From an uncultured Candidatus Saccharibacteria bacterium (GTDB lineage Bacteria; Patescibacteriota; Minisyncoccia; Phycocordibacterales; UBA9973), in contig CAYRQJ010000002.1 in NCBI GenBank assembly GCA_964426555.1, forward strand, positions 29,556 to 93,555: DNA of 64,000 nucleotides, in the 5' to 3' direction. Within the stretch, counting starts at the first letter, position 1, and each line of letters opens with the position of its first letter. The position numbers and the translations under genes were made by a program. Below the pieces are notes generated by a model. It searched no databases. It saw only the letters and a list, made by a program, of their open reading frames with translations, and was not told where the DNA came from. Shown one piece after another: positions 4,616 to 63,751 of the stretch.

Positions 4616-4670
4616 ATATACAGAGTATCACAAATATATTTTTTTGTGCTATACTGCTCGCACATATGGG

Positions 4671-4789
4671 TCCCGTTAGAAGCCACGGTCACGCAAAACG
4701 GTATTACCATAGATTATTATATATGAATGAAATTATAAGACTAAATATGCAAAGTTACGGTATTAAGACTGTGACCTGCTTCTAACGGG
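4671..4789 (+). repeat. Structured leader cassette, copy A: inverted-repeat hairpin (tcccgttagaagc...gcttctaacggg) around an AT-rich core, directly abutting the mreB start codon
   Basis: Left arm 4671-4692 tcccgttagaagccacggtcac; right arm 4771-4790 gtgacctgcttctaacggga. Same architecture recurs at 49815-49932 and 53563-53679. Confidence 0.7.
4723..4785 (+). CDS. Putative leader peptide (uORF) MNEIIRLNMQSYGIKTVTCF; stop TAA lies 4 nt before the mreB ATG
   Basis: ORF embedded in copy A. Related peptides ending in CF-stop occur in the other two copies. Confidence 0.35.
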   Translation: MNEIIRLNMQSYGIKTVTCF

Positions 4790-5806
4790 ATGGGATTATT
4801 CAGAAAAAAACTAGGGATAGATTTAGGTACCGCAAATACGCTTGTTTATGTACCAGGGCGTGGAATTGTGTTGTCCGAACCTAGTGTTGTGGCTGTTTCT
4901 GAACAAGACAATAAAATAATGGCAGTTGGTAGTGAAGCTAAAGACATGATTGGTAAAACCCCAGACAGTATTATTGCTTATCGTCCAATGAGAGATGGTG
5001 TAATAGCTGATTATCGTGTTACTGAAGCCATGCTAAGGCATTATATTTCTAAAGCATTAGGTAAATGGTCTTTTGTAAAACCAGATGTATTAATTTCTGT
5101 ACCTGCTGGTATAACTTCAACTGAACGCCGTGCAGTTATAGAAGCAGCTCTAAAAGCTGGAGCTAAAAATGCTTATGTTGCCAAAGAACCAATTTTAGCG
5201 GCAATTGGTGCTGGAATACCGATTTACGAATCTCGTGGGCACATGGTGGTGGATATTGGCGGTGGTACTACAGATGTTGCGGTAATATCACTTGGTGGAA
5301 TCGTTGCATCAACATCAGTAAAATGTGCTGGAAATAAATTAGATGTTGCAATTACTGACTTTATAAAAAAATCTTTTAACTTAGCAATTGGGGACCGTAC
5401 CGCTGAACAAATTAAAATTCGCGTAGCTTCAGCTGTTCCAGTTGATGACGAAGTTACTATGCTTATAAAAGGCCGTGATTATATTACAGGCTTACCAAGG
5501 ACTGCTCAGGTTACTACTAACGAAGTATGTCGTGCAATTGATAAAGAGTTACGCATGATGATAAAAGCCATAAAAGATGTATTGCAAGATACTCCTCCTG
5601 AATTAGCTGCTGACATTATCGACCATGGAATAATAATGACAGGAGGAACATCACAACTGCGAGGGTTACCAGAATTAGTTTATCGCCGTACTGGAGTAAA
5701 AGCTCGTCTTGCCGAAGAACCAATGCTGTCAGTTGTAAAAGGTACAGGTGAAGCACTAGAACATTTAGAAGTTTACAAACGAGCATTACTTCTTAAACAA
5801 AAATAA
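4790..5806 (+). CDS. mreB: Rod shape-determining protein MreB
   Basis: KLGIDLGTANTLVYV..., DIGGGTTDVAVISLGG, actin-like ATPase motifs. Confidence 0.9.
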   Translation: MGLFRKKLGIDLGTANTLVYVPGRGIVLSEPSVVAVSEQDNKIMAVGSEAKDMIGKTPDSIIAYRPMRDGVIADYRVTEAMLRHYISKALGKWSFVKPDVLISVPAGITSTERRAVIEAALKAGAKNAYVAKEPILAAIGAGIPIYESRGHMVVDIGGGTTDVAVISLGGIVASTSVKCAGNKLDVAITDFIKKSFNLAIGDRTAEQIKIRVASAVPVDDEVTMLIKGRDYITGLPRTAQVTTNEVCRAIDKELRMMIKAIKDVLQDTPPELAADIIDHGIIMTGGTSQLRGLPELVYRRTGVKARLAEEPMLSVVKGTGEALEHLEVYKRALLLKQK

Positions 5807-12413: not shown

Positions 12414-12962
12414 ATGTCATCAGGTCATGGAGAAAGTAAAAGTTCAGGAATATTATTGTTAATAATAGGGATTCTTTTAATAGGAGCTTTAATTGGAATA
12501 TTTTTTCCAAGTGGTTTTAAAAAGAAAACAGCTTATACTCCAGCTATTGATAAAATGGGGTTAGTTTTAGGGCAAGAAACACTACCTACCGACCAAAGAG
12601 AGACCGATGCTTATTATACAAAAGCAAATATAGATAAAAATATTTGTGGTATAAAGATTTTTTCACCATTACCTGGACAAAAAGTCAGTTTTCCAATTGA
12701 AGTTTCTGGTTATGTAAATGGCTGTAATTGGGTACCTTTTGAGGGGCAAGTTGGAACTTTGGAAATTAGAGATAAAAATAAAGCACTATCAAGATTAATA
12801 ATTCTTCCTGTTGATGGAGATAATTATACTTTACCAGCATATTTTAAAATTAAAGTAACTCCAGAATTTAATATTGAATCAAACGATGGTGTATTTATTT
12901 TCCACAACGAAGACCCAACTGGTGAAAAACCAGAGACCTTCCAAGTGCCTGTAATTTATTAA
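12414..12962 (+). CDS. Hypothetical membrane-anchored protein (possible Ig-like/Gmad2-like domain)
   Basis: N-terminal TM helix, then a beta-rich domain (KVSFPIEVSGYVNGCNWVPFEGQVGTLEIRD). Confidence 0.35.
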   Translation: MSSGHGESKSSGILLLIIGILLIGALIGIFFPSGFKKKTAYTPAIDKMGLVLGQETLPTDQRETDAYYTKANIDKNICGIKIFSPLPGQKVSFPIEVSGYVNGCNWVPFEGQVGTLEIRDKNKALSRLIILPVDGDNYTLPAYFKIKVTPEFNIESNDGVFIFHNEDPTGEKPETFQVPVIY

Positions 12963-36704: not shown

Positions 36705-36743
36705 CTATTAAAATTTAGTTTATAAAAATACAGAATATACTTT

Positions 36744-38441
36744 ATGAATTCCGAAACCCGAAACTGCCAAAATTGTAAATCTGACTTTGTAATAGAGCCA
36801 GATGATTTTGATTTTTATAGCAAAATTGGCGTACCAGCACCAACATGGTGCCCGGAATGCAGAATGATCCGAAGATTTAATTTTCGTAATGAAAAAATGC
36901 TATTTCGTAGACCAGACGGTTTAACCGGTCAAGACATATTTTCTACGTTTTCTCCTGAATCAGAAGTAACTACTTATGAAAACAACTACTGGTTTGGATC
37001 AGAATGGGATCCAAATATTACAGGAAAAGATTACGATTTTAATAAAACTTTCTTTACACAATTTAAAGATCTTTTAAAAGTTGCTCCAATTCCAGCAAGA
37101 TCTGTATTTAAAATGGTAAATTCTGATTATTGTAATGAGGCTAGTGAATCAAAAAATTGTTATTTATGTTTTAATACAGACTTTATAGAAGATTCTGCTT
37201 ATTTAAGGAAAATTAGACAAGTAAAGAATTCATTTGATTTATATGAATGCGAGAACTGTGAACTTAGCTATGAAGGATTAGTTTTAGATAAATGCTATAG
37301 GACATTTTATTCTTTTGGTTTAGAAAATTGTGTAGATGTATGGTTTTCAAAAAATTTACGAGGATGTACTAATTGTTTTGGTTGCGTAAATTTAGTAAAT
37401 AAATCAAATTGTTATTTTAATGAGCAATTAACCAAGGAAGAATATAATAAAAAAATTAGTGAATTTAATTCTGGGTCATATTTTGAAATTGAACAAATAT
37501 TAAAAAAATCTAAGGAATTTTGGATGAAATTCCCAGTTAAATATAACTACAGTTTAAAGAACATAAATGCAACAGGGGATAGGATATTTAATTCTAAAGA
37601 TATCAAGGATTCATACTATATAAAGAATTCTCAAAATTTAACTTACTGCCAAGATGTTTGGAATAAAAGTTCAGACTGTTACGACTATTCAGTATGGGGG
37701 GACGGAGCACAAAATGTATATGAATCAATGACATGTGGGTTAGGAATTTCAAATATAAAATTTTGTTTTAATTGTTGGGAGAATGAACAAAATTTAGAAT
37801 ATTGTGGATACTGTATTGGTTCAAACGATTGTTTTGGATGTATTGGTTTATACAAAAAACAATATTGCATATTAAATAAACAATATACAAAAGAAGAATA
37901 CTTTGAATTACTTCCCAAAATAAAACAGCATATGATGAATATGCCGTATGTTGATTCAAGTAATAGAGTTTTTAAATATGGTGAATTTTTTCCTTATGAC
38001 ATATCACCTGTAGCTTATAACGAAAGCTTAGCTCAAGATTTTTTTCCACTTAATCCTAATAAAATAATAGAAAACGGTTATCAATATAGAGAGATAAAAA
38101 ATAGAGAATTTGAAAAAACTATTTTAGCTAAAGACATACCAGACAATATAAAGGATTTAAATGAAGATTTTATTAAAGAAATTATTGAATGCGAAAACTG
38201 TACAAAAGCATTTAGAATCATACCAATTGAATTTCAATTCTACAAAAATATAAATATCCCTATTCCTAGAAAATGTCAAGATTGCAGATTTACGGAAAGA
38301 TTTAAATTTGTTACAGTTCCAAAATTTTATAATAGAAATTGTATGAATAACGATTGTAATAATACTTTTATTACGCCATACGCTCCAGATAGGCCAGAAA
38401 TAGTGTACTGTGAAAAGTGTTACCAGCAAGAAATGATTTAA
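36744..38441 (+). CDS. Cysteine-rich protein, paralog 1, with N- and C-terminal zinc-ribbon motifs and internally duplicated Cys modules
   Basis: CQNCKSDFVIEPDDFDFYSKIGVPAPTWCPEC at the N-terminus and CENCTKAFRIIPIEFQFYKNINIPIPRKCQDC near the C-terminus. Many CxxC pairs. No signal peptide. Confidence 0.6.
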   Translation: MNSETRNCQNCKSDFVIEPDDFDFYSKIGVPAPTWCPECRMIRRFNFRNEKMLFRRPDGLTGQDIFSTFSPESEVTTYENNYWFGSEWDPNITGKDYDFNKTFFTQFKDLLKVAPIPARSVFKMVNSDYCNEASESKNCYLCFNTDFIEDSAYLRKIRQVKNSFDLYECENCELSYEGLVLDKCYRTFYSFGLENCVDVWFSKNLRGCTNCFGCVNLVNKSNCYFNEQLTKEEYNKKISEFNSGSYFEIEQILKKSKEFWMKFPVKYNYSLKNINATGDRIFNSKDIKDSYYIKNSQNLTYCQDVWNKSSDCYDYSVWGDGAQNVYESMTCGLGISNIKFCFNCWENEQNLEYCGYCIGSNDCFGCIGLYKKQYCILNKQYTKEEYFELLPKIKQHMMNMPYVDSSNRVFKYGEFFPYDISPVAYNESLAQDFFPLNPNKIIENGYQYREIKNREFEKTILAKDIPDNIKDLNEDFIKEIIECENCTKAFRIIPIEFQFYKNINIPIPRKCQDCRFTERFKFVTVPKFYNRNCMNNDCNNTFITPYAPDRPEIVYCEKCYQQEMI

Positions 38442-38447
38442 TTACTT

Positions 38448-38525
38448 TATGAATTCCGAAACCCGAAACTGCCAAAACCCCAAAGAAAATCATATTTCAT
38501 TGCTTTCTACGGGGCAAACTGTAAA
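38448..38525 (+). pseudogene. Duplicated 5' fragment of the Cys-rich gene (MNSETRNCQ...) ending in an early stop
   Basis: 33 nt at 38445-38477 are identical to 36741-36773, which holds the start of paralog 1. Reading frame decays after 9 codons. Confidence 0.5.
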
Positions 38526-38533
38526 ATAAATAT

Positions 38534-40270
38534 ATGGAGAATAGAGAATGTCAGAATTGTCATAATAATTTCACGATTGAGCCGGATGATTTTGGCTTTT
38601 ACGAAAAAATTGGTGTACCAGTACCAACCTTTTGCCGAATTTGCATGAATCAAAGAAGGCTTTCTTTTCGTAATACTCATTCGTTATACAAAAGAAAAGA
38701 TTCATTTACTGGTAAAGATATAATTACAATATATTCTCCAGACAAAGATTTAACTGTAATGGCACAAAAAGATTGGTGGGGTGACAGTTGGAACGCAATG
38801 GATTATGCACAAGATTATGATTTTTCAAAACCATTTTTTACACAGTGGGATAATTTGCGTAACAATGTTCCTATGCAAAGTTTGTCTAATTCCAAAGCAG
38901 TAAATAGTGACTACTGTAATGTTGCCGAAGAAAGCTACGACTGTTATCTTGTTTCTGCATCATGGCGATGTGAAAGATCAATGTATTGTGATGCAGTAAG
39001 CCAAATTAAAGATACTATGGACTGTCATGTAGTAAACAAGTCTGACTTTTGTTATGACGATGTATTATGCCAATCATCTTACAAGCTTTTCTACAGTCAG
39101 GACTGTCATGCTTGTACAGATTCATATTTCCTATACGACTGCAGTGGTTGTACTGATTGTTTTATGTCTTCAAACTTACGTAACAAAAGTTATTGTTTTA
39201 ATAACGTTCAATTAACTAAAGAAGCTTACAAAGAAAAAATGAGTCAAATAAATTTAGGAAGTTTTGAGACTGTGCAATACTTAAAATCCGAATTTGAAAA
39301 AATGCGTTTAAATTCGTTTCATCGATTTAGTAATACATTAAATTCTGTAAATGTTACAGGTAATAACATTGAGAACGCAAAAAATTGTTATTATGCTTTT
39401 GATGCTTTTGAAGGATTAGAAGATTCTAAATATGTATTTTGGGCTGGGTACAAAGGTAAGGAATTTTTCCATTCTGGTCCAGGAGTAGGGGAAGGTGAAT
39501 TAATGTATGAATGTACTGATTGTGGTATAGGTGGTAACCGTAATTTATTTGCTAACGTAACTTATGGTTGCCAAAATATTGAATACTGTATCAACTGTCA
39601 TAATTCTTCAAATTTGTTTGGTTGTATTGGTTTGCGCAGTAAACAATATTGTATTTTCAACAAACAATATACAAAAGAAGAATGGCTGGAATTAATTCCA
39701 AAAATAAAACAACATATGAATGATATGCCATATATAGACAAAGCTGGTGTTGTTTATAAATACGGGGAATTTTTTCCAATTGAATTATCACATTTTTGTT
39801 ATAACGAAACGGTGGCTATGGACTATTATCCACTTACAAAAGAAGAATGTTTAGCCCGGGGTTATAAATGGAAAGACCCTGAAATAAAAAACTACGTGCC
39901 AACAGTTAAATCTACTGATCTACCTGACGATATTGCAATGGTAGGAGACAACATACTAGGAGATATTATTGAATGTGCTCATAAAGGTGAATGTAGCGAT
40001 AGATGTTCCACTGCATTTAAAATTACTGAAAATGAATTAAATTTTTATAAAAGATTCAACATTCCATTACCAAGACTATGTAACGGTTGCAGACATTATG
40101 AAAGATTACATAAAAGAACTCCTATGGATTTATGGCACAGACAATGTATGTGTAATAAATCAAACCATAATCACAGTAGTCAATGTCCCGTAGAATTTGA
40201 AACCGCATACGCCCCAGACAGACCAGAAATAGTGTACTGTGAAAAATGCTATCAACAAGAAGTAATATAA
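38534..40270 (+). CDS. Cysteine-rich protein, paralog 2
   Basis: CQNCHNNFTIEPDDFGFYEKIGVPVPTFCRIC N-terminus; CSTAFKITENELNFYKRFNIPLPRLCNGC C-terminus. Same C-terminal YAPDRPEIVYCEKCYQQE as paralog 1. Confidence 0.6.
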   Translation: MENRECQNCHNNFTIEPDDFGFYEKIGVPVPTFCRICMNQRRLSFRNTHSLYKRKDSFTGKDIITIYSPDKDLTVMAQKDWWGDSWNAMDYAQDYDFSKPFFTQWDNLRNNVPMQSLSNSKAVNSDYCNVAEESYDCYLVSASWRCERSMYCDAVSQIKDTMDCHVVNKSDFCYDDVLCQSSYKLFYSQDCHACTDSYFLYDCSGCTDCFMSSNLRNKSYCFNNVQLTKEAYKEKMSQINLGSFETVQYLKSEFEKMRLNSFHRFSNTLNSVNVTGNNIENAKNCYYAFDAFEGLEDSKYVFWAGYKGKEFFHSGPGVGEGELMYECTDCGIGGNRNLFANVTYGCQNIEYCINCHNSSNLFGCIGLRSKQYCIFNKQYTKEEWLELIPKIKQHMNDMPYIDKAGVVYKYGEFFPIELSHFCYNETVAMDYYPLTKEECLARGYKWKDPEIKNYVPTVKSTDLPDDIAMVGDNILGDIIECAHKGECSDRCSTAFKITENELNFYKRFNIPLPRLCNGCRHYERLHKRTPMDLWHRQCMCNKSNHNHSSQCPVEFETAYAPDRPEIVYCEKCYQQEVI

Positions 40271-49379: not shown

Positions 49380-49814
49380 TTATTCAACAATTATTTTAAA
49401 TTTTTTAGTTTTACCAAGAAGATTTATCTCTCCAACATGCTCTCCAAGATTCTTTATATGAAATGGTGTAAACATGTTTTCATTTAATTCTAAATTAGTT
49501 TCTTTAGAAAGTATCGGTAACACATCTTTTATCGTAACAGCTTTAAATAACACACCTTTATTATTTGTGCTAGTTTTTATTACAATCTCTTTACCTTCAA
49601 CTTCTTTTAAGATAGTTTCATTCTTTGCTTTTAGAAAAACGTCTTTAGTTTGATTAGACATTATGCGATCTTTTAATTTTTGTACAGCTTCAGGGGTTGC
49701 AGGAATAGCTAATTTTTGTGGAATAAGAAAATTTCTAGCATAGCCTTCGCCTATGTCTTTGATTTCATCTTTCTTTCCTTGTTTTGGAACGTCTTTTAAA
49801 AAGATAATTTTCAT
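49380..49814 (-). CDS. rplI: 50S ribosomal protein L9
   Basis: [32 protein letters not shown] is canonical L9. Confidence 0.9.
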
Positions 49815-49932
49815 CCCGTTAGAAGCAGATCGCGATCAAATCACGATTTTGCTTAATTATTCTTATAATATTATTTTTATTTAAATTCATAATTCTCCTT
49901 GTACATTAATTGCGATCGCGGCTTCTAACGGG
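49815..49932 (-). repeat. Structured leader cassette, copy B (precedes rplI)
   Basis: Arms cccgttagaagcagatcgcgatc and gcgatcgcggcttctaacggga on plus. Gene-strand end reads ttctaacgggATG. Confidence 0.7.
49819..49890 (-). CDS. Putative leader peptide (uORF) [23 protein letters not shown], with aaggag SD 5 nt upstream
   Basis: Stop TAA lies 4 nt before the rplI ATG. Confidence 0.4.
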
Positions 49933-49942
49933 ATTCATTCCT

Positions 49943-51707: not shown

Positions 51708-52883
51708 CTAGTCTGTAACTTTAACCAAAGCGTCAGTAGTATATTTATTTTTAGGATCCCATAGTAACCATGAATGTAACCCCAAATCTTCTAATGCTTT
51801 TATTTGCTCTCTTACCATGTGTGTATCATAATTTACACCATCTAATGAGAAATCTTGAAGCCATGGACGAATTTCGGTATTAGAATTTATTAATTCTCTT
51901 CTTTTTATTGCATCTTGCATTGAAAGACTGACTGTTTCGTATGGACTATTAACTGGAGATTTAATATTTTTATAACCAGCGTAAAAATGGCTTGGGTATA
52001 TCATAGGAGCAATGGCATTAGAATATAATAATAAATCTTCATAATACTGCCCTATTCCCATATCATCTTGTGTTGATACTATTTGCCCAAACACGTCTAA
52101 AGATATTGGAATATTTTTTGCAGATAATTCTGTATACATATGTTTACTAAAATTTGTAATTACTGTTTGTTTACTTTCATTTTTAGATATAGGAAAAATT
52201 TTATCTTTACTACCATCAGTTGGAAAACGAATATAATCAAAATTTATTTCATCAAATCCAATATCATATGCTTCATTAGCAAGATCAAGAATATATTTAT
52301 GGAATTCAGGACTACTAGCATCAACCCAAGATAATCCGTGCCGGTCTACCCAAAGACTTCCATTAGGATTTTGTACAGATAAATTTTTATGATTTTTAGA
52401 ATACACAGGGTCTTCAAATACAGCAATTCGCGCAATAGCATATATACCTTTACTGTGTAATTCTTCTATATACTGCGGCAAATCAACTACTCGTTTTGAT
52501 GCAGCATTTTTTCTATCTATACTGGCATTCTCTCCTGCTGGAGTAGATACAACACCTGTTGAATCTTTAAAGTCTATAACTATCGCATTTATTTCTGTAT
52601 CATCAGCTAATTTTGTTAATCTGTCTCGTATAGATTTAGTCCCAGCAACCCAAGAAGACATATAAATACCTTTTATGTGTTCAGGTTTTGCAATGTGAAT
52701 TTCTTTTTTAGTTTCTTCTTTTGTTTCATTTTTTTCTTTGTTTAAAATATTGACTTGATTAAAATCAAAAGTAAAAAAATTCTCAACAGTTTTAGAATTT
52801 GTAATAGATATATTTATTACAAACAAAGCCAAAGAAATAAATCCTAGGACAAAAACAGTAACACGTAATATTTTTCTAAGCAT
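51708..52883 (-). CDS. Putative glycoside-hydrolase-like TIM-barrel protein (COG1306/DUF4015-like)
   Basis: TM anchor, then GIYMSSWVAG...INAIVIDFKD...FDEINFDYIRFPTDG pattern of this family. Confidence 0.45.
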   Translation of the reverse strand: MLRKILRVTVFVLGFISLALFVINISITNSKTVENFFTFDFNQVNILNKEKNETKEETKKEIHIAKPEHIKGIYMSSWVAGTKSIRDRLTKLADDTEINAIVIDFKDSTGVVSTPAGENASIDRKNAASKRVVDLPQYIEELHSKGIYAIARIAVFEDPVYSKNHKNLSVQNPNGSLWVDRHGLSWVDASSPEFHKYILDLANEAYDIGFDEINFDYIRFPTDGSKDKIFPISKNESKQTVITNFSKHMYTELSAKNIPISLDVFGQIVSTQDDMGIGQYYEDLLLYSNAIAPMIYPSHFYAGYKNIKSPVNSPYETVSLSMQDAIKRRELINSNTEIRPWLQDFSLDGVNYDTHMVREQIKALEDLGLHSWLLWDPKNKYTTDALVKVTD

Positions 52884-53679: not shown

Positions 53680-53690
53680 CAGGTATAACC

Positions 53691-62809: not shown

Positions 62810-63751
62810 TTATTCTTCGTCTCCAGCGTCGCCGATTATTCCATTTTGAAAAGCTTCTATAATAGGATCTATTTCCCCCATCATTAATTTAGGTAAATTA
62901 TGCCAAGACATTTTTATGCGGTGGTCAGTCAGTCTATCTTGTGGAAAATTATATGTACGAATCTTTTCACTTCTATCTGCTGTACCAATTTGACTTGCTC
63001 TATCCCCTGCATATTTTGCAGCTTCTTCTTCGTCTTTTTGCATTTGTAGTTTCGCCATTAGCATCTTCATTGCAGTTTCGCGGTTGCCCAGCTGAGTTCT
63101 CTCCATTGTACAGCGTACAGCCATCCCAGACGGCTTGTGGATTAATCTTACGGCAGTTTCTACTTTGTTAACGTTTTGACCACCAGCACCACCAGCACGA
63201 GATGTTTCCATTTCAATATCTGCTGGGTTTATAACAATATTAGTTTTTTTATAAATCGGTAAAACTGCAACTGATGCAGTAGATGTATGGATACGTCCAT
63301 TTTTTTCTGTAAGTGGAATTCGTTGTACGCGGTGTACTCCGGTTTCGTAGCGCATTAGTTTGTATACATCAGTACCACGTAATTGAAAAGTTTCATCATC
63401 AAGTAATTTTACTTGCCAACCTTTTTTACTGGCATATCTTTGATACATGTCCCCCAATTCACGAGCAAAAATTGTAGCTTCGTCTCCACCAGCACCTGCA
63501 CGCAATTCCACTACTACTTCATTTGGAAATTCTTCCTCGGCAGCTTCGGCTTTTTCTATCTCAGTTACTTGATCTTCGATACCTTTAATTTGCATATCAA
63601 TAATTGATAGTTCTTCCACTGCCATGTCTGCCATTTCAGGATTATCATTTATCATTTTTTCTACATCGCCACGCTCGTTCAAAAGCTTCTCGTACTGACG
63701 TGCAAGAAATTCGGTTTTGTAATTCTCTTTTAGTTTTTCAATATCTAACAT
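62810..63751 (-). CDS. prfA: Peptide chain release factor 1 (class I RF with GGQ and PxT-type PLT motif)
   Basis: [14 protein letters not shown] (RF1-type tripeptide region; RF2 would have SPF) and [21 protein letters not shown]. Start set at MLDIEKL, downstream of the GC hairpin. Confidence 0.8.

Follow-up and report, generated by a model that had tools for sequence, protein, structure and literature searches.

A MITE-like cassette at the rplI start codon of a Saccharibacteria genome: a probable member of a start-codon mobile family in the candidate phyla radiation

Introduction

Bacterial MITEs (miniature transposable elements with inverted repeats), among them the Correia/NEMIS repeats of Neisseria, ERIC/IRU of enterobacteria and RUP of pneumococcus, are 100-150 nt long, carry inverted ends, are flanked by a short duplication and lie scattered in many copies; once transcribed they form stable hairpins that can change how a neighbouring gene is expressed, and they derive from, or are moved by, a larger element. 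Here we describe a 120-nt cassette of this appearance, named copy B, which precedes rplI, the gene of ribosomal protein L9, in a stretch of 64,000 nucleotides (contig CAYRQJ010000002.1, positions 29,556 to 93,555, assembly GCA_964426555.1) from an uncultured Candidatus Saccharibacteria bacterium; this whole stretch is called the window, and two further copies, A and C, lie within it before mreB and rsmI. Whereas the MITEs named above have a TA-like duplication and variable intergenic sites and are attributed to DDE transposases, the cassettes display a nucleotide-precise start-codon site (ATG/NN), a fixed orientation, a retained reading frame and, as the only coding relative identified, an element that specifies a GIY-YIG nuclease.

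Other described repeats share part of this picture. Rickettsia palindromic elements (RPE) are likewise palindromic selfish repeats of about 100-150 nt, found in small genomes and tolerated in translated regions; unlike RPE, which lie in frame within open reading frames (ORFs) and become part of the protein, the cassette precedes the ORF and has its own stop codon 4 nt upstream of, or overlapping, the rebuilt start. Mycobacterial interspersed repetitive units (MIRU) are intergenic repeats with small ORFs, oriented with the genes and with ends that overlap the neighbouring stop and start codons, an arrangement read as preserving coupling; in contrast to the cassettes, MIRU are direct tandem repeats in operon spacers, without inverted ends, hairpin, start-codon duplication or nuclease partner.

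Two further likenesses concern the protein and the translational layout. Free-standing and intron-borne GIY-YIG homing endonucleases such as I-TevI and the T4 Seg proteins also place a GIY-YIG catalytic domain on selfish DNA, but they are larger, have separate DNA-binding domains, act at one cognate site through double-strand-break repair and show neither inverted ends nor a duplication, whereas the nuclease related to the cassettes has about 90 aa, is nearest to UPF0213/SLX1 and is found at many unrelated genes. In classical leaders with an upstream open reading frame (uORF) and a hairpin, and in ATGA gene pairs, the start codon is likewise base-paired, and the 3' arm of the stem forms part of a translated upstream ORF that ends within a few nt of it; however, classical leaders have evolved together with the gene they serve, in many cases as sensors of a signal, whereas the cassette is portable, recently inserted and encodes a neutrally drifting peptide.

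Genomes of the candidate phyla radiation (CPR, or Patescibacteria) are very small and gene-dense, and are thought to be poor in mobile DNA. On the basis of sequence comparisons, the best explanation, which we consider probable and hold with good confidence, is that copy B is a non-autonomous MITE-like member of a start-codon mobile family in CPR/Patescibacteria, with a link to a small nuclease, its putative mobilising enzyme, and with a plausible coupled reinitiation of the host gene. No published description of the element was found in open-access papers and preprints, the end sequences included, and prior work may exist.

Results

Copy B and the start of rplI

Read on the minus strand, the ctpA stop codon TAA is followed by AGGA, ATGAA, T CCCGTTAGAAGC CGCGATCGC ... 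and then by AAGGAG, aatt and the uORF ATG. The features of this junction are the following:

49814-49933, minus strand: copy B, complete MITE-like cassette, 120 nt (T CCCGTTAGAA ... TTCTAACGGG A), the last A being the A of the rplI ATG
49934-49938, minus strand: original rplI start ATGAA, with the ATG at 49938-49936 and the left copy of the TGAA duplication at 49937-49934
49810-49813, minus strand: right copy of the TGAA target-site duplication, which together with the terminal A of the element regenerates ATGAA
49923-49933, minus strand: 5' terminal inverted repeat TCCCGTTAGAA, 11 nt
49814-49824, minus strand: 3' terminal inverted repeat TTCTAACGGGA, holding the uORF stop TAA (49821-49819)
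49914-49922, minus strand: positions 12-20 in the 5' arm of the stem, the stretch that varies (GC CGCGATC), with partners at 49826-49825 and 49837-49831
49825-49837, minus strand: variable part of the 3' stem arm, with GATCGCG at 49837-49831, the bulge ATCT at 49830-49827 and GC at 49826-49825
49906-49938, minus strand: short ORF that begins at the original ATG, crosses the 5' arm and ends at a TAA (MNPVRSRDRN), read directly from the sequence
49895-49900, minus strand: Shine-Dalgarno (SD)-like hexamer AAGGAG, 4 nt 5' of the uORF ATG, read directly from the sequence
49819-49890, minus strand: uORF of 23 codons plus TAA, traversing the 3' arm and followed by CGGG and the rplI ATG
49380-49814, minus strand: host gene rplI, ribosomal protein L9, 144 aa (Pfam Ribosomal_L9_N/C), ATG at 49814-49812

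A protein identical to the window's RplI was found in the source assembly alone. Homologues of RplI, with identities of 83%, 78% and 51%, lie on five contigs (L202-L206; numbers of this kind denote fetched loci), which have the same gene order, with DUF4015, a small ORF, ctpA and rplI, and a metallophosphoesterase on the other strand. In all five the gap between ctpA and rplI measures only 3-10 nt, as TAA-(3-10 nt)-ATGAAAGTTATC, with ATGAAAGTTATCTTTTTAAAAGAC after the gap, and the cassette was not found at this syntenic junction of L202-L206 (alignment A3). In the window the flanks are the same and 124 additional bases separate them, made up of the 120-nt cassette and a second TGAA; the filled junction reads ...AGGAATGAA / T...A / TGAAAATTATC..., and the ATG is rebuilt from the last A of the element and the duplicated TG. 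As judged from these aligned junctions, the empty site in the relatives and the TGAA duplication flanking the cassette show copy B to be an insertion into the rplI start (ATG/AA...) that duplicated TGAA. Presence/absence polymorphism at an orthologous site, as in a MITE, was found for copy B.

The predicted transcript of copy B folds as a single long hairpin, with a minimum free energy of -38.2 kcal/mol against a mean of -20.1 for shuffled sequences (z = -5.7), and none of 200 shuffles folds as stably. The stem has about 20 bp and is nearly perfect, and it takes in the rplI ATG as well, whose A and U are paired with the two bases preceding CCCG. The layout is that of a coupled uORF, TAA-CGGG-ATG, with a start codon occluded by the structure that the uORF traverses. 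The first-pass annotation had described a minus-strand cassette with this uORF (49890-49819, 23 codons, ATG...TGC TTC TAA, stop 4 nt before the rplI ATG), and both are confirmed, with the correction that its cassette limits were 2 nt too short (true extent 49933-49814, T...A). The compensatory exchange of a G:C for an A:U pair between copies B and C, which it had also pointed out, is real, the arms being GAAGC/GCTTC in B and GAAAC/GTTTC in C. It had likewise called the AAGGAG of copy B unusual for the window, rightly so, because SD-like motifs precede just 2 of the 66 window genes.

Cassettes across Patescibacteria

The 11-nt ends TCCCGTTAGAA/TTCTAACGGGA are perfect in copies A, B and C, and the window holds three occurrences of the end sequence where 0 are expected. 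One genome per species was scanned with the pattern TCCCGTTAGAA-N85-115-TTCTAACGGGA, exact 11-nt ends being required; this yielded at least 120 loci, and all cassette counts are descriptive and do not constitute a census, because exact ends and an 85-115-nt spacer were demanded and the loci at hand are part of the matches. Nearly all loci come from metagenome-assembled genomes (MAGs) of Patescibacteria, and many lineages are represented, including Saccharibacteria, Kaiserbacteria, Nomurabacteria, Jorgensenbacteria, Kazan, Levyibacteriota and Kerfeldbacteria. MAG labels may be wrong; a few loci are labelled as Omnitrophota (L008, L063) or Gammaproteobacteria (L036), which mis-binning or spread beyond CPR could explain.

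Cassettes of 107-135 nt were analysed further (n = 129), with orientation assigned from the flanking TG; the copies are phylogenetically related, and the counts represent non-independent events. A TG follows the cassette and forms an ATG in 122/129, a perfect 4-nt direct repeat (ATGNN-element-TGNN) is present in 92/129, and ATGNN lies directly upstream in 90/129. In 117 of the 122, an ORF that has at least 60 aa or extends past the edge of the locus starts at the downstream ATG, compared with 26% for random ATGs in the same DNA, and the ORFs so opened have a median length of 215 aa. Host-gene products with recognisable N-termini include topoisomerase I, SSB, L9, L17, L31, S8, RuvX, SecG and tRNA synthetases. 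The logo of the reconstructed target is A-T-G-(A/G)-A, with TGAA at 48/85 sites and an upstream SD at just 9/85. Cassette interiors are highly diverse, and the invariance of the 11-nt ends in the 129 cassettes follows from the construction of the search; the window copies are mutually 62-76% identical, and the closest sampled relative of copy B, among the cassettes listed, lies in a Nomurabacteria MAG (77.5% identity). Within one MAG, three different genes carry copies that are 90-95.5% identical (L050:325, L050:6262, L058:5990).

Inverted ends, a target-site duplication (TGAA in copy B, TGGG in copy A), an empty site and dispersed near-identical copies are all found, as in a MITE; by these properties the short cassette may be described as MITE-like, set apart from the MITEs described so far by its start-codon niche and its GIY-YIG relative. 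Tandem double insertions occur among the cassettes (L007, L068, L072), and such pairs at one start codon suggest that an occupied site stays a target. Back-to-back or nested elements that share the 4-nt repeat were observed at L007:7673-7896, L068:6503-6721, L072:7580-, L144:1000-, L149:413- and L053:7264-7575. Shorter forms of 41-83 nt with the same or one-mismatch ends were also seen (L076:7695-7735, L110:832-882, L006:7173-7239, L037:2235-2305 and others), some of them with an outermost C...G in place of T...A, which would rebuild GTG and not ATG. A minority of elements is flanked by TAAA/TAAG (ATAAA/ATAAG; L008:4498-4604, L117:7373-7489, L090:1518-1628, L136:818-1097, L179:2506-2785, L184:2477-2755); these lie away from start codons and may adjoin stop codons. 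In the fetched 8-kb loci no autonomous element of kilobase size with these ends was found, the sizes present being 41-135 nt and about 277 nt.

Conserved features of the cassettes

In the long-hairpin class, which includes copies A, B and C, a 4-nt bulge (ATCT/ACCT/TCCT) lies in the gene-proximal arm in 57/57 cassettes and in the reverse arrangement in 0, a proportion (57:0) that rules out for this class the random orientation of an ordinary MITE; a class with a small terminal hairpin occurs in both orientations, roughly 26:6 by eye. Stem cells are paired in 98.8%, a figure inflated for the inner helix because that helix, and not positions 12 and 13, was used to select the set. Pairing drops to about 40% when partners are slid by 1-3 columns, and two-sided changes occupy 76 cells compared with 23 ± 7 after shuffling, a value reached in 0/500 shuffles. 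Covariation is seen at stem positions 12, 13, 18 and 19, position 12, the site of the G:C/A:U exchange pointed out in the first-pass annotation, being GC in 24 sequences and AU in 19. Among the non-Watson-Crick pairs, G·U outnumbers A·C by 21 to 4, an excess that indicates selection on the sense strand (the mRNA or one DNA strand) and not on double-stranded ends.

The reading frame that ends at the terminal TAA is stop-free over the whole element in 48/122 cassettes, compared with 4 and 6 for the other sense frames and 8, 16 and 6 for the antisense frames; cassette lengths divisible by three are over-represented (59/122). Counting ATG-started ORFs that have 8 codons or more and extend through the 3' arm gives 63 in the TAA frame, versus 9 and 18 in the other sense frames and 17, 20 and 18 in antisense. 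The TAA-frame ORF starts at the old host ATG in 28/122 (as in copy A) and at an internal ATG in 44 (as in copies B and C). Since SD-like motifs precede 10 of these 44 internal ATGs and 10/51 of the other interior ATGs, the SD was rejected as a family feature, and AAGGAG is peculiar to copy B.

The ratio of nonsynonymous to synonymous substitution rates (dN/dS) was used for the encoded peptide. Between copies B and C it is 0.17, over 23 codons that are partly constrained by the stem, in agreement with the often synonymous differences noted in the first-pass annotation; this did not extend to the subfamily of 23 copies, in which the loop-encoded peptide gave about 0.96 (180 pairs). The dN/dS and covariation analysis of additional copies that had been called for shows a covarying stem and a loop peptide free to change, and of the proposed joint constraint on frame and structure, the stem pairing and the open frame to the TAA stood, and the peptide sequence did not. 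In the 23 related copies the ORF is kept at 19-26 codons, and its C-terminus is hydrophobic, as set by the stem and the end sequence. The arrest-peptide-like arrangement that had been suggested is unlikely because the loop-encoded peptide is not conserved (dN/dS about 1).

Nuclease-encoding elements of about 277 nt

When one mismatch was allowed in the ends, pairs about 280 nt apart appeared in two loci (L111 and L113), each enclosing an ORF, which matched the Pfam family GIY-YIG (PF01541) with E 1e-16 and 61 bits, above the gathering cutoff of 22.6. Metagenomes were then scanned with an alignment of three element proteins, on protein similarity alone; of at least 438 relatives the best 80 were kept, the counts being descriptive here too, and 75 of these 80 loci are bracketed by (T/C)CCCGTTAGAG...CTCTAACGGG(A/G) at a distance of 268-286 nt, mostly as atgaa-element-tgaa, with ends that recur with at most one change. 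Element length is 1 mod 3 in 57 of 70 distinct elements. The nuclease ORF starts at the ATG of the host gene in 33/70 (M-N-P-V-R-D..., with P-V-R encoded by the end), and 31 of these 33 stop at a TGA overlapping the rebuilt ATG (GGGATGA); the remaining elements have their own ATG 16-28 nt inside. The ATG is rebuilt in 52/70 elements, and in 49 of the 52 it opens a real ORF.

The nuclease is under purifying selection (median dN/dS 0.12), and its homologues comprise 5,584 protein clusters at E <1e-10, mostly of 94 aa, whose names do not go beyond "GIY-YIG nuclease family protein", "putative endonuclease" or "excinuclease ABC subunit C". The end-encoded residues recur in the top 120 homologues, with the start M(N/S)PVR in 89/120 and the end LTG in 111/120, and the motifs Y.Y, Y.G, R...H and RE are present in 98-117 of the 120. 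Among solved structures, two UPF0213 proteins and the structure-specific nuclease SLX1 come closest, and matches to homing-endonuclease models are weak. These findings show that the elements of about 277 nt, with their near-identical ends, encode one predicted GIY-YIG nuclease of about 90 aa, UPF0213/Slx1-like in character. A homing endonuclease gene with a cognate site was discarded as an identity, as the elements occupy the starts of many unrelated genes that have only ATGRA in common. GIY-YIG genes without flanking ends are also present in these genomes (L009, L107, L047). In a report on CPR rRNA genes (PMC11270868), GIY-YIG genes are described in insertions that are neither introns nor homing-like, and these rRNA-gene insertions might belong to the same element family.

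Relation of the cassettes to the nuclease elements

Anchored global alignments were used for the comparison of the two element types. Inside the 3' end of the cassette, 36 nt resemble the 3' end of the nuclease gene beyond shuffled sequences (p 1e-12), and this 3' interior is closer to the nuclease gene than is the reverse-complemented 5' side (p 1e-8). One nuclease variant (L052) ends in ...GASYL-TAA, in the same frame as the ...ASYF-TAA of many cassette ORFs, and a cassette and a nuclease element were found in one MAG at least twice (L052; L108 with L111). The 3'-end similarity and the shared frame end give moderate support to the view that the cassettes may be internal-deletion derivatives of nuclease elements with the same polarity; we infer that the nuclease would move them in trans.

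Other copies and genome context in the window

The remaining copies are placed as follows:

4671-4790, plus strand: copy A, before mreB, with the old ATG at 4666-4668 and the TGGG duplication at 4667-4670 and 4791-4794
Old ATG to TAA 4783-4785, plus strand: ORF of copy A, 39 codons
53562-53679, minus strand: copy C, before rsmI, with a uORF at 53638-53567 encoding MKIHLINIKRINKQDRVLIAICF

At the left flank of copy C (53680-53690), later decay or another insertion geometry could explain a missing repeat. Apart from one tRNA, no Rfam family reached its gathering score in the window, and the cassette, even at permissive E-values, gave sub-threshold matches to generic hairpins only. Integron attC sites were rejected as an identity, since the core order is reversed (GTTAGAA...TTCTAAC versus 5' RYYYAAC and 3' GTTRRRY) and the flanking genes are housekeeping genes, any search for an integrase being limited to the ORF listing.

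In many window genes an extended -10-like box, TGnTATAAT, precedes the ATG, its end lying 6-9 nt away, examples being the genes starting at 12414, 17160 and 24971 and those at 62810-63751 and 51708-52883 on the minus strand; in the fetched CPR loci, -10-like hexamers peak with the last T at -7, at about 9% of gene starts. The scarcity of SD motifs (2/66 genes), together with the frequent -10-like boxes near the ATG, suggests that leaderless or near-leaderless mRNAs may be common in this genome. Elsewhere in the window, the region 36738-40270 holds a pair of neighbouring paralogues of about 570 aa each (36744-38441 and 38534-40270), which share blocks of 71-85% identity at a constant offset of 1784 nt (repeats D1, D3, D5, D6, D15), and an identical 35-nt stretch precedes each of them.

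Discussion

If copy B is a mobile cassette of the kind proposed, its insertion would leave the rplI AUG at the foot of a strong hairpin, in a genome that hardly uses SD sequences. Ribosomes translating the cassette ORF would open the 3' arm, terminate at the UAA and reinitiate 4 nt downstream on rplI; termination-reinitiation at the terminal TAA appears reasonable because the open TAA frame is strongly over-represented in the gene-sense orientation. In copy A the old AUG, with an extended -10 box about 10 nt upstream of it, would supply the ribosomes, and in copy B they would come from the SD-AUG of the loop, or be relayed from the 10-codon ORF at the old AUG. The nuclease elements, commonly read from the host ATG, would rely on the tighter ATGA overlap for reinitiation of the host gene. 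Such coupling would account for the retained orientation, the frame, the placement of the stop, the sense-strand pairing and the drifting peptide. As for movement, the substrates of the Slx1/UPF0213-like nuclease may be the ends, possibly in the form of a paired stem, and ATGRA targets; if it cut with a 4-nt stagger after the A and the host repaired the break, the duplication would result.

Several observations weigh against this account. The descriptive nature of the cassette counts limits it, and within the 64-kb window a nuclease homologue was not found; copy C has neither an intact duplication (cctg upstream, tgaa downstream) nor an old ATG. The interior similarity to the nuclease gene is weak and restricted to the 3' side, with nothing clear on the 5' side, and we know of no GIY-YIG nuclease that acts as a transposase. 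A nuclease alone would not readily account for the 4-nt duplication or for the finding of start codons. Moreover, an ATG-started ORF in the TAA frame is missing from 46/122 cassettes, which means that coupling cannot be universal. Regarding the choice of site, a pentamer preference combined with loss of lethal insertions predicts about 55-65% of survivors at starts, versus about 91% observed; ATGAA occurs in the window 21 times at starts, 17 times between genes (some inside elements) and 254 times inside genes. This model may contribute and looks insufficient, so that something more seems involved in start-codon targeting. Targeting of the transcription starts of leaderless genes was likewise considered and set aside: -10-like hexamers with their ends 7-9 nt 5' of the ATG are frequent in these genomes and only slightly enriched at occupied sites (31% versus 22%), which does not explain the specificity.

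The absence of a suitable ORF from part of the family is what one would expect if the hairpin of a mobile copy acted through RNA processing, an RNase III-type cut freeing a short unstructured leader and the ORF being incidental. Correia/NEMIS repeats of Neisseria are RNase III substrates, and the nearly perfect stem and its sense-strand-specific pairing would suit such an enzyme; yet the three-fold excess of open frames at the terminal TAA, the lengths divisible by three and the ATGA overlap of the nuclease ORF would be left unaccounted for. As a full replacement for coupling we consider this reading unlikely, while a double-strand-specific RNase that cleaves the stem deserves consideration, either instead of coupling or alongside it. 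The lack of any known GIY-YIG transposase, the weak interior similarity and the many small GIY-YIG genes without flanking ends would in turn fit ends that are a palindromic repeat moved by another enzyme of the host or of an insertion sequence (IS), with the GIY-YIG gene as a homing-endonuclease passenger in some copies. To this we also assign a low probability: loci collected by protein similarity alone carry the ends at a fixed distance in 75 of 80 cases, the frame and length class fit both the ends and the host ATG, both protein termini (MNPVR... and ...LTG) are end-encoded, and no other enzyme gene recurs in or beside the elements of the fetched loci, among which no systematic search was made.

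The remaining readings give the uORF or the hairpin a function of its own. A dedicated cis-regulatory leader of rplI, with uORF and hairpin evolved together with the gene for control of L9 by coupling or arrest, was the proposal of the first-pass annotation, and a buried start codon, a uORF stop 4 nt upstream, an SD and the low dN/dS between B and C are what it would lead one to expect. It hardly survives the wider comparison and is now very improbable: the junction is empty in relatives with 83%, 78% and 51% RplI identity, the same cassette precedes mreB, rsmI and, in many CPR lineages, the start codons of many unrelated genes with target-site duplications, the peptide is neutral across the subfamily, and the SD is not shared. 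Barely credible, in our assessment, is a functional small protein, for instance a membrane-active toxin of a type I toxin-antitoxin pair or a small regulator; the steady ORF length in 23 related copies and the hydrophobic C-terminus speak for it, but the loop evolves neutrally, the C-terminus is dictated by the stem and the end, and many copies have no such ORF.

Beyond copy B itself, we put forward tentatively, as a possibility, that the family is a new class of prokaryotic transposable element whose sole protein is the UPF0213/Slx1-like GIY-YIG nuclease of about 90 aa, that at about 277 bp its full form would be the smallest autonomous element known, that it has neither a promoter nor a ribosome-binding site of its own and, by landing on host start codons, would have its nuclease read from the host ATG and the host gene reinitiated at the ATGA overlap, and that its hairpin derivatives, copy B among them, shape the translation of CPR housekeeping genes. 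Should this protein indeed mobilise the elements, a nuclease class would be added to the chemistries of transposases, and a new lower size limit would apply to autonomous elements. Thousands of these nuclease ORFs pass in annotations for ordinary genes ("GIY-YIG nuclease family protein", "excinuclease ABC subunit C"), and the cassettes can mislead start-codon calling and searches for regulatory motifs. The cassettes also represent natural experiments in translation initiation within an SD-poor and often leaderless-looking system, in which orientation, frame and stop are kept while the sequence drifts. A selfish element hiding at the starts of essential genes (mreB, rplI, ssb, topA, tRNA synthetases) would constitute a new route of persistence without killing the host.

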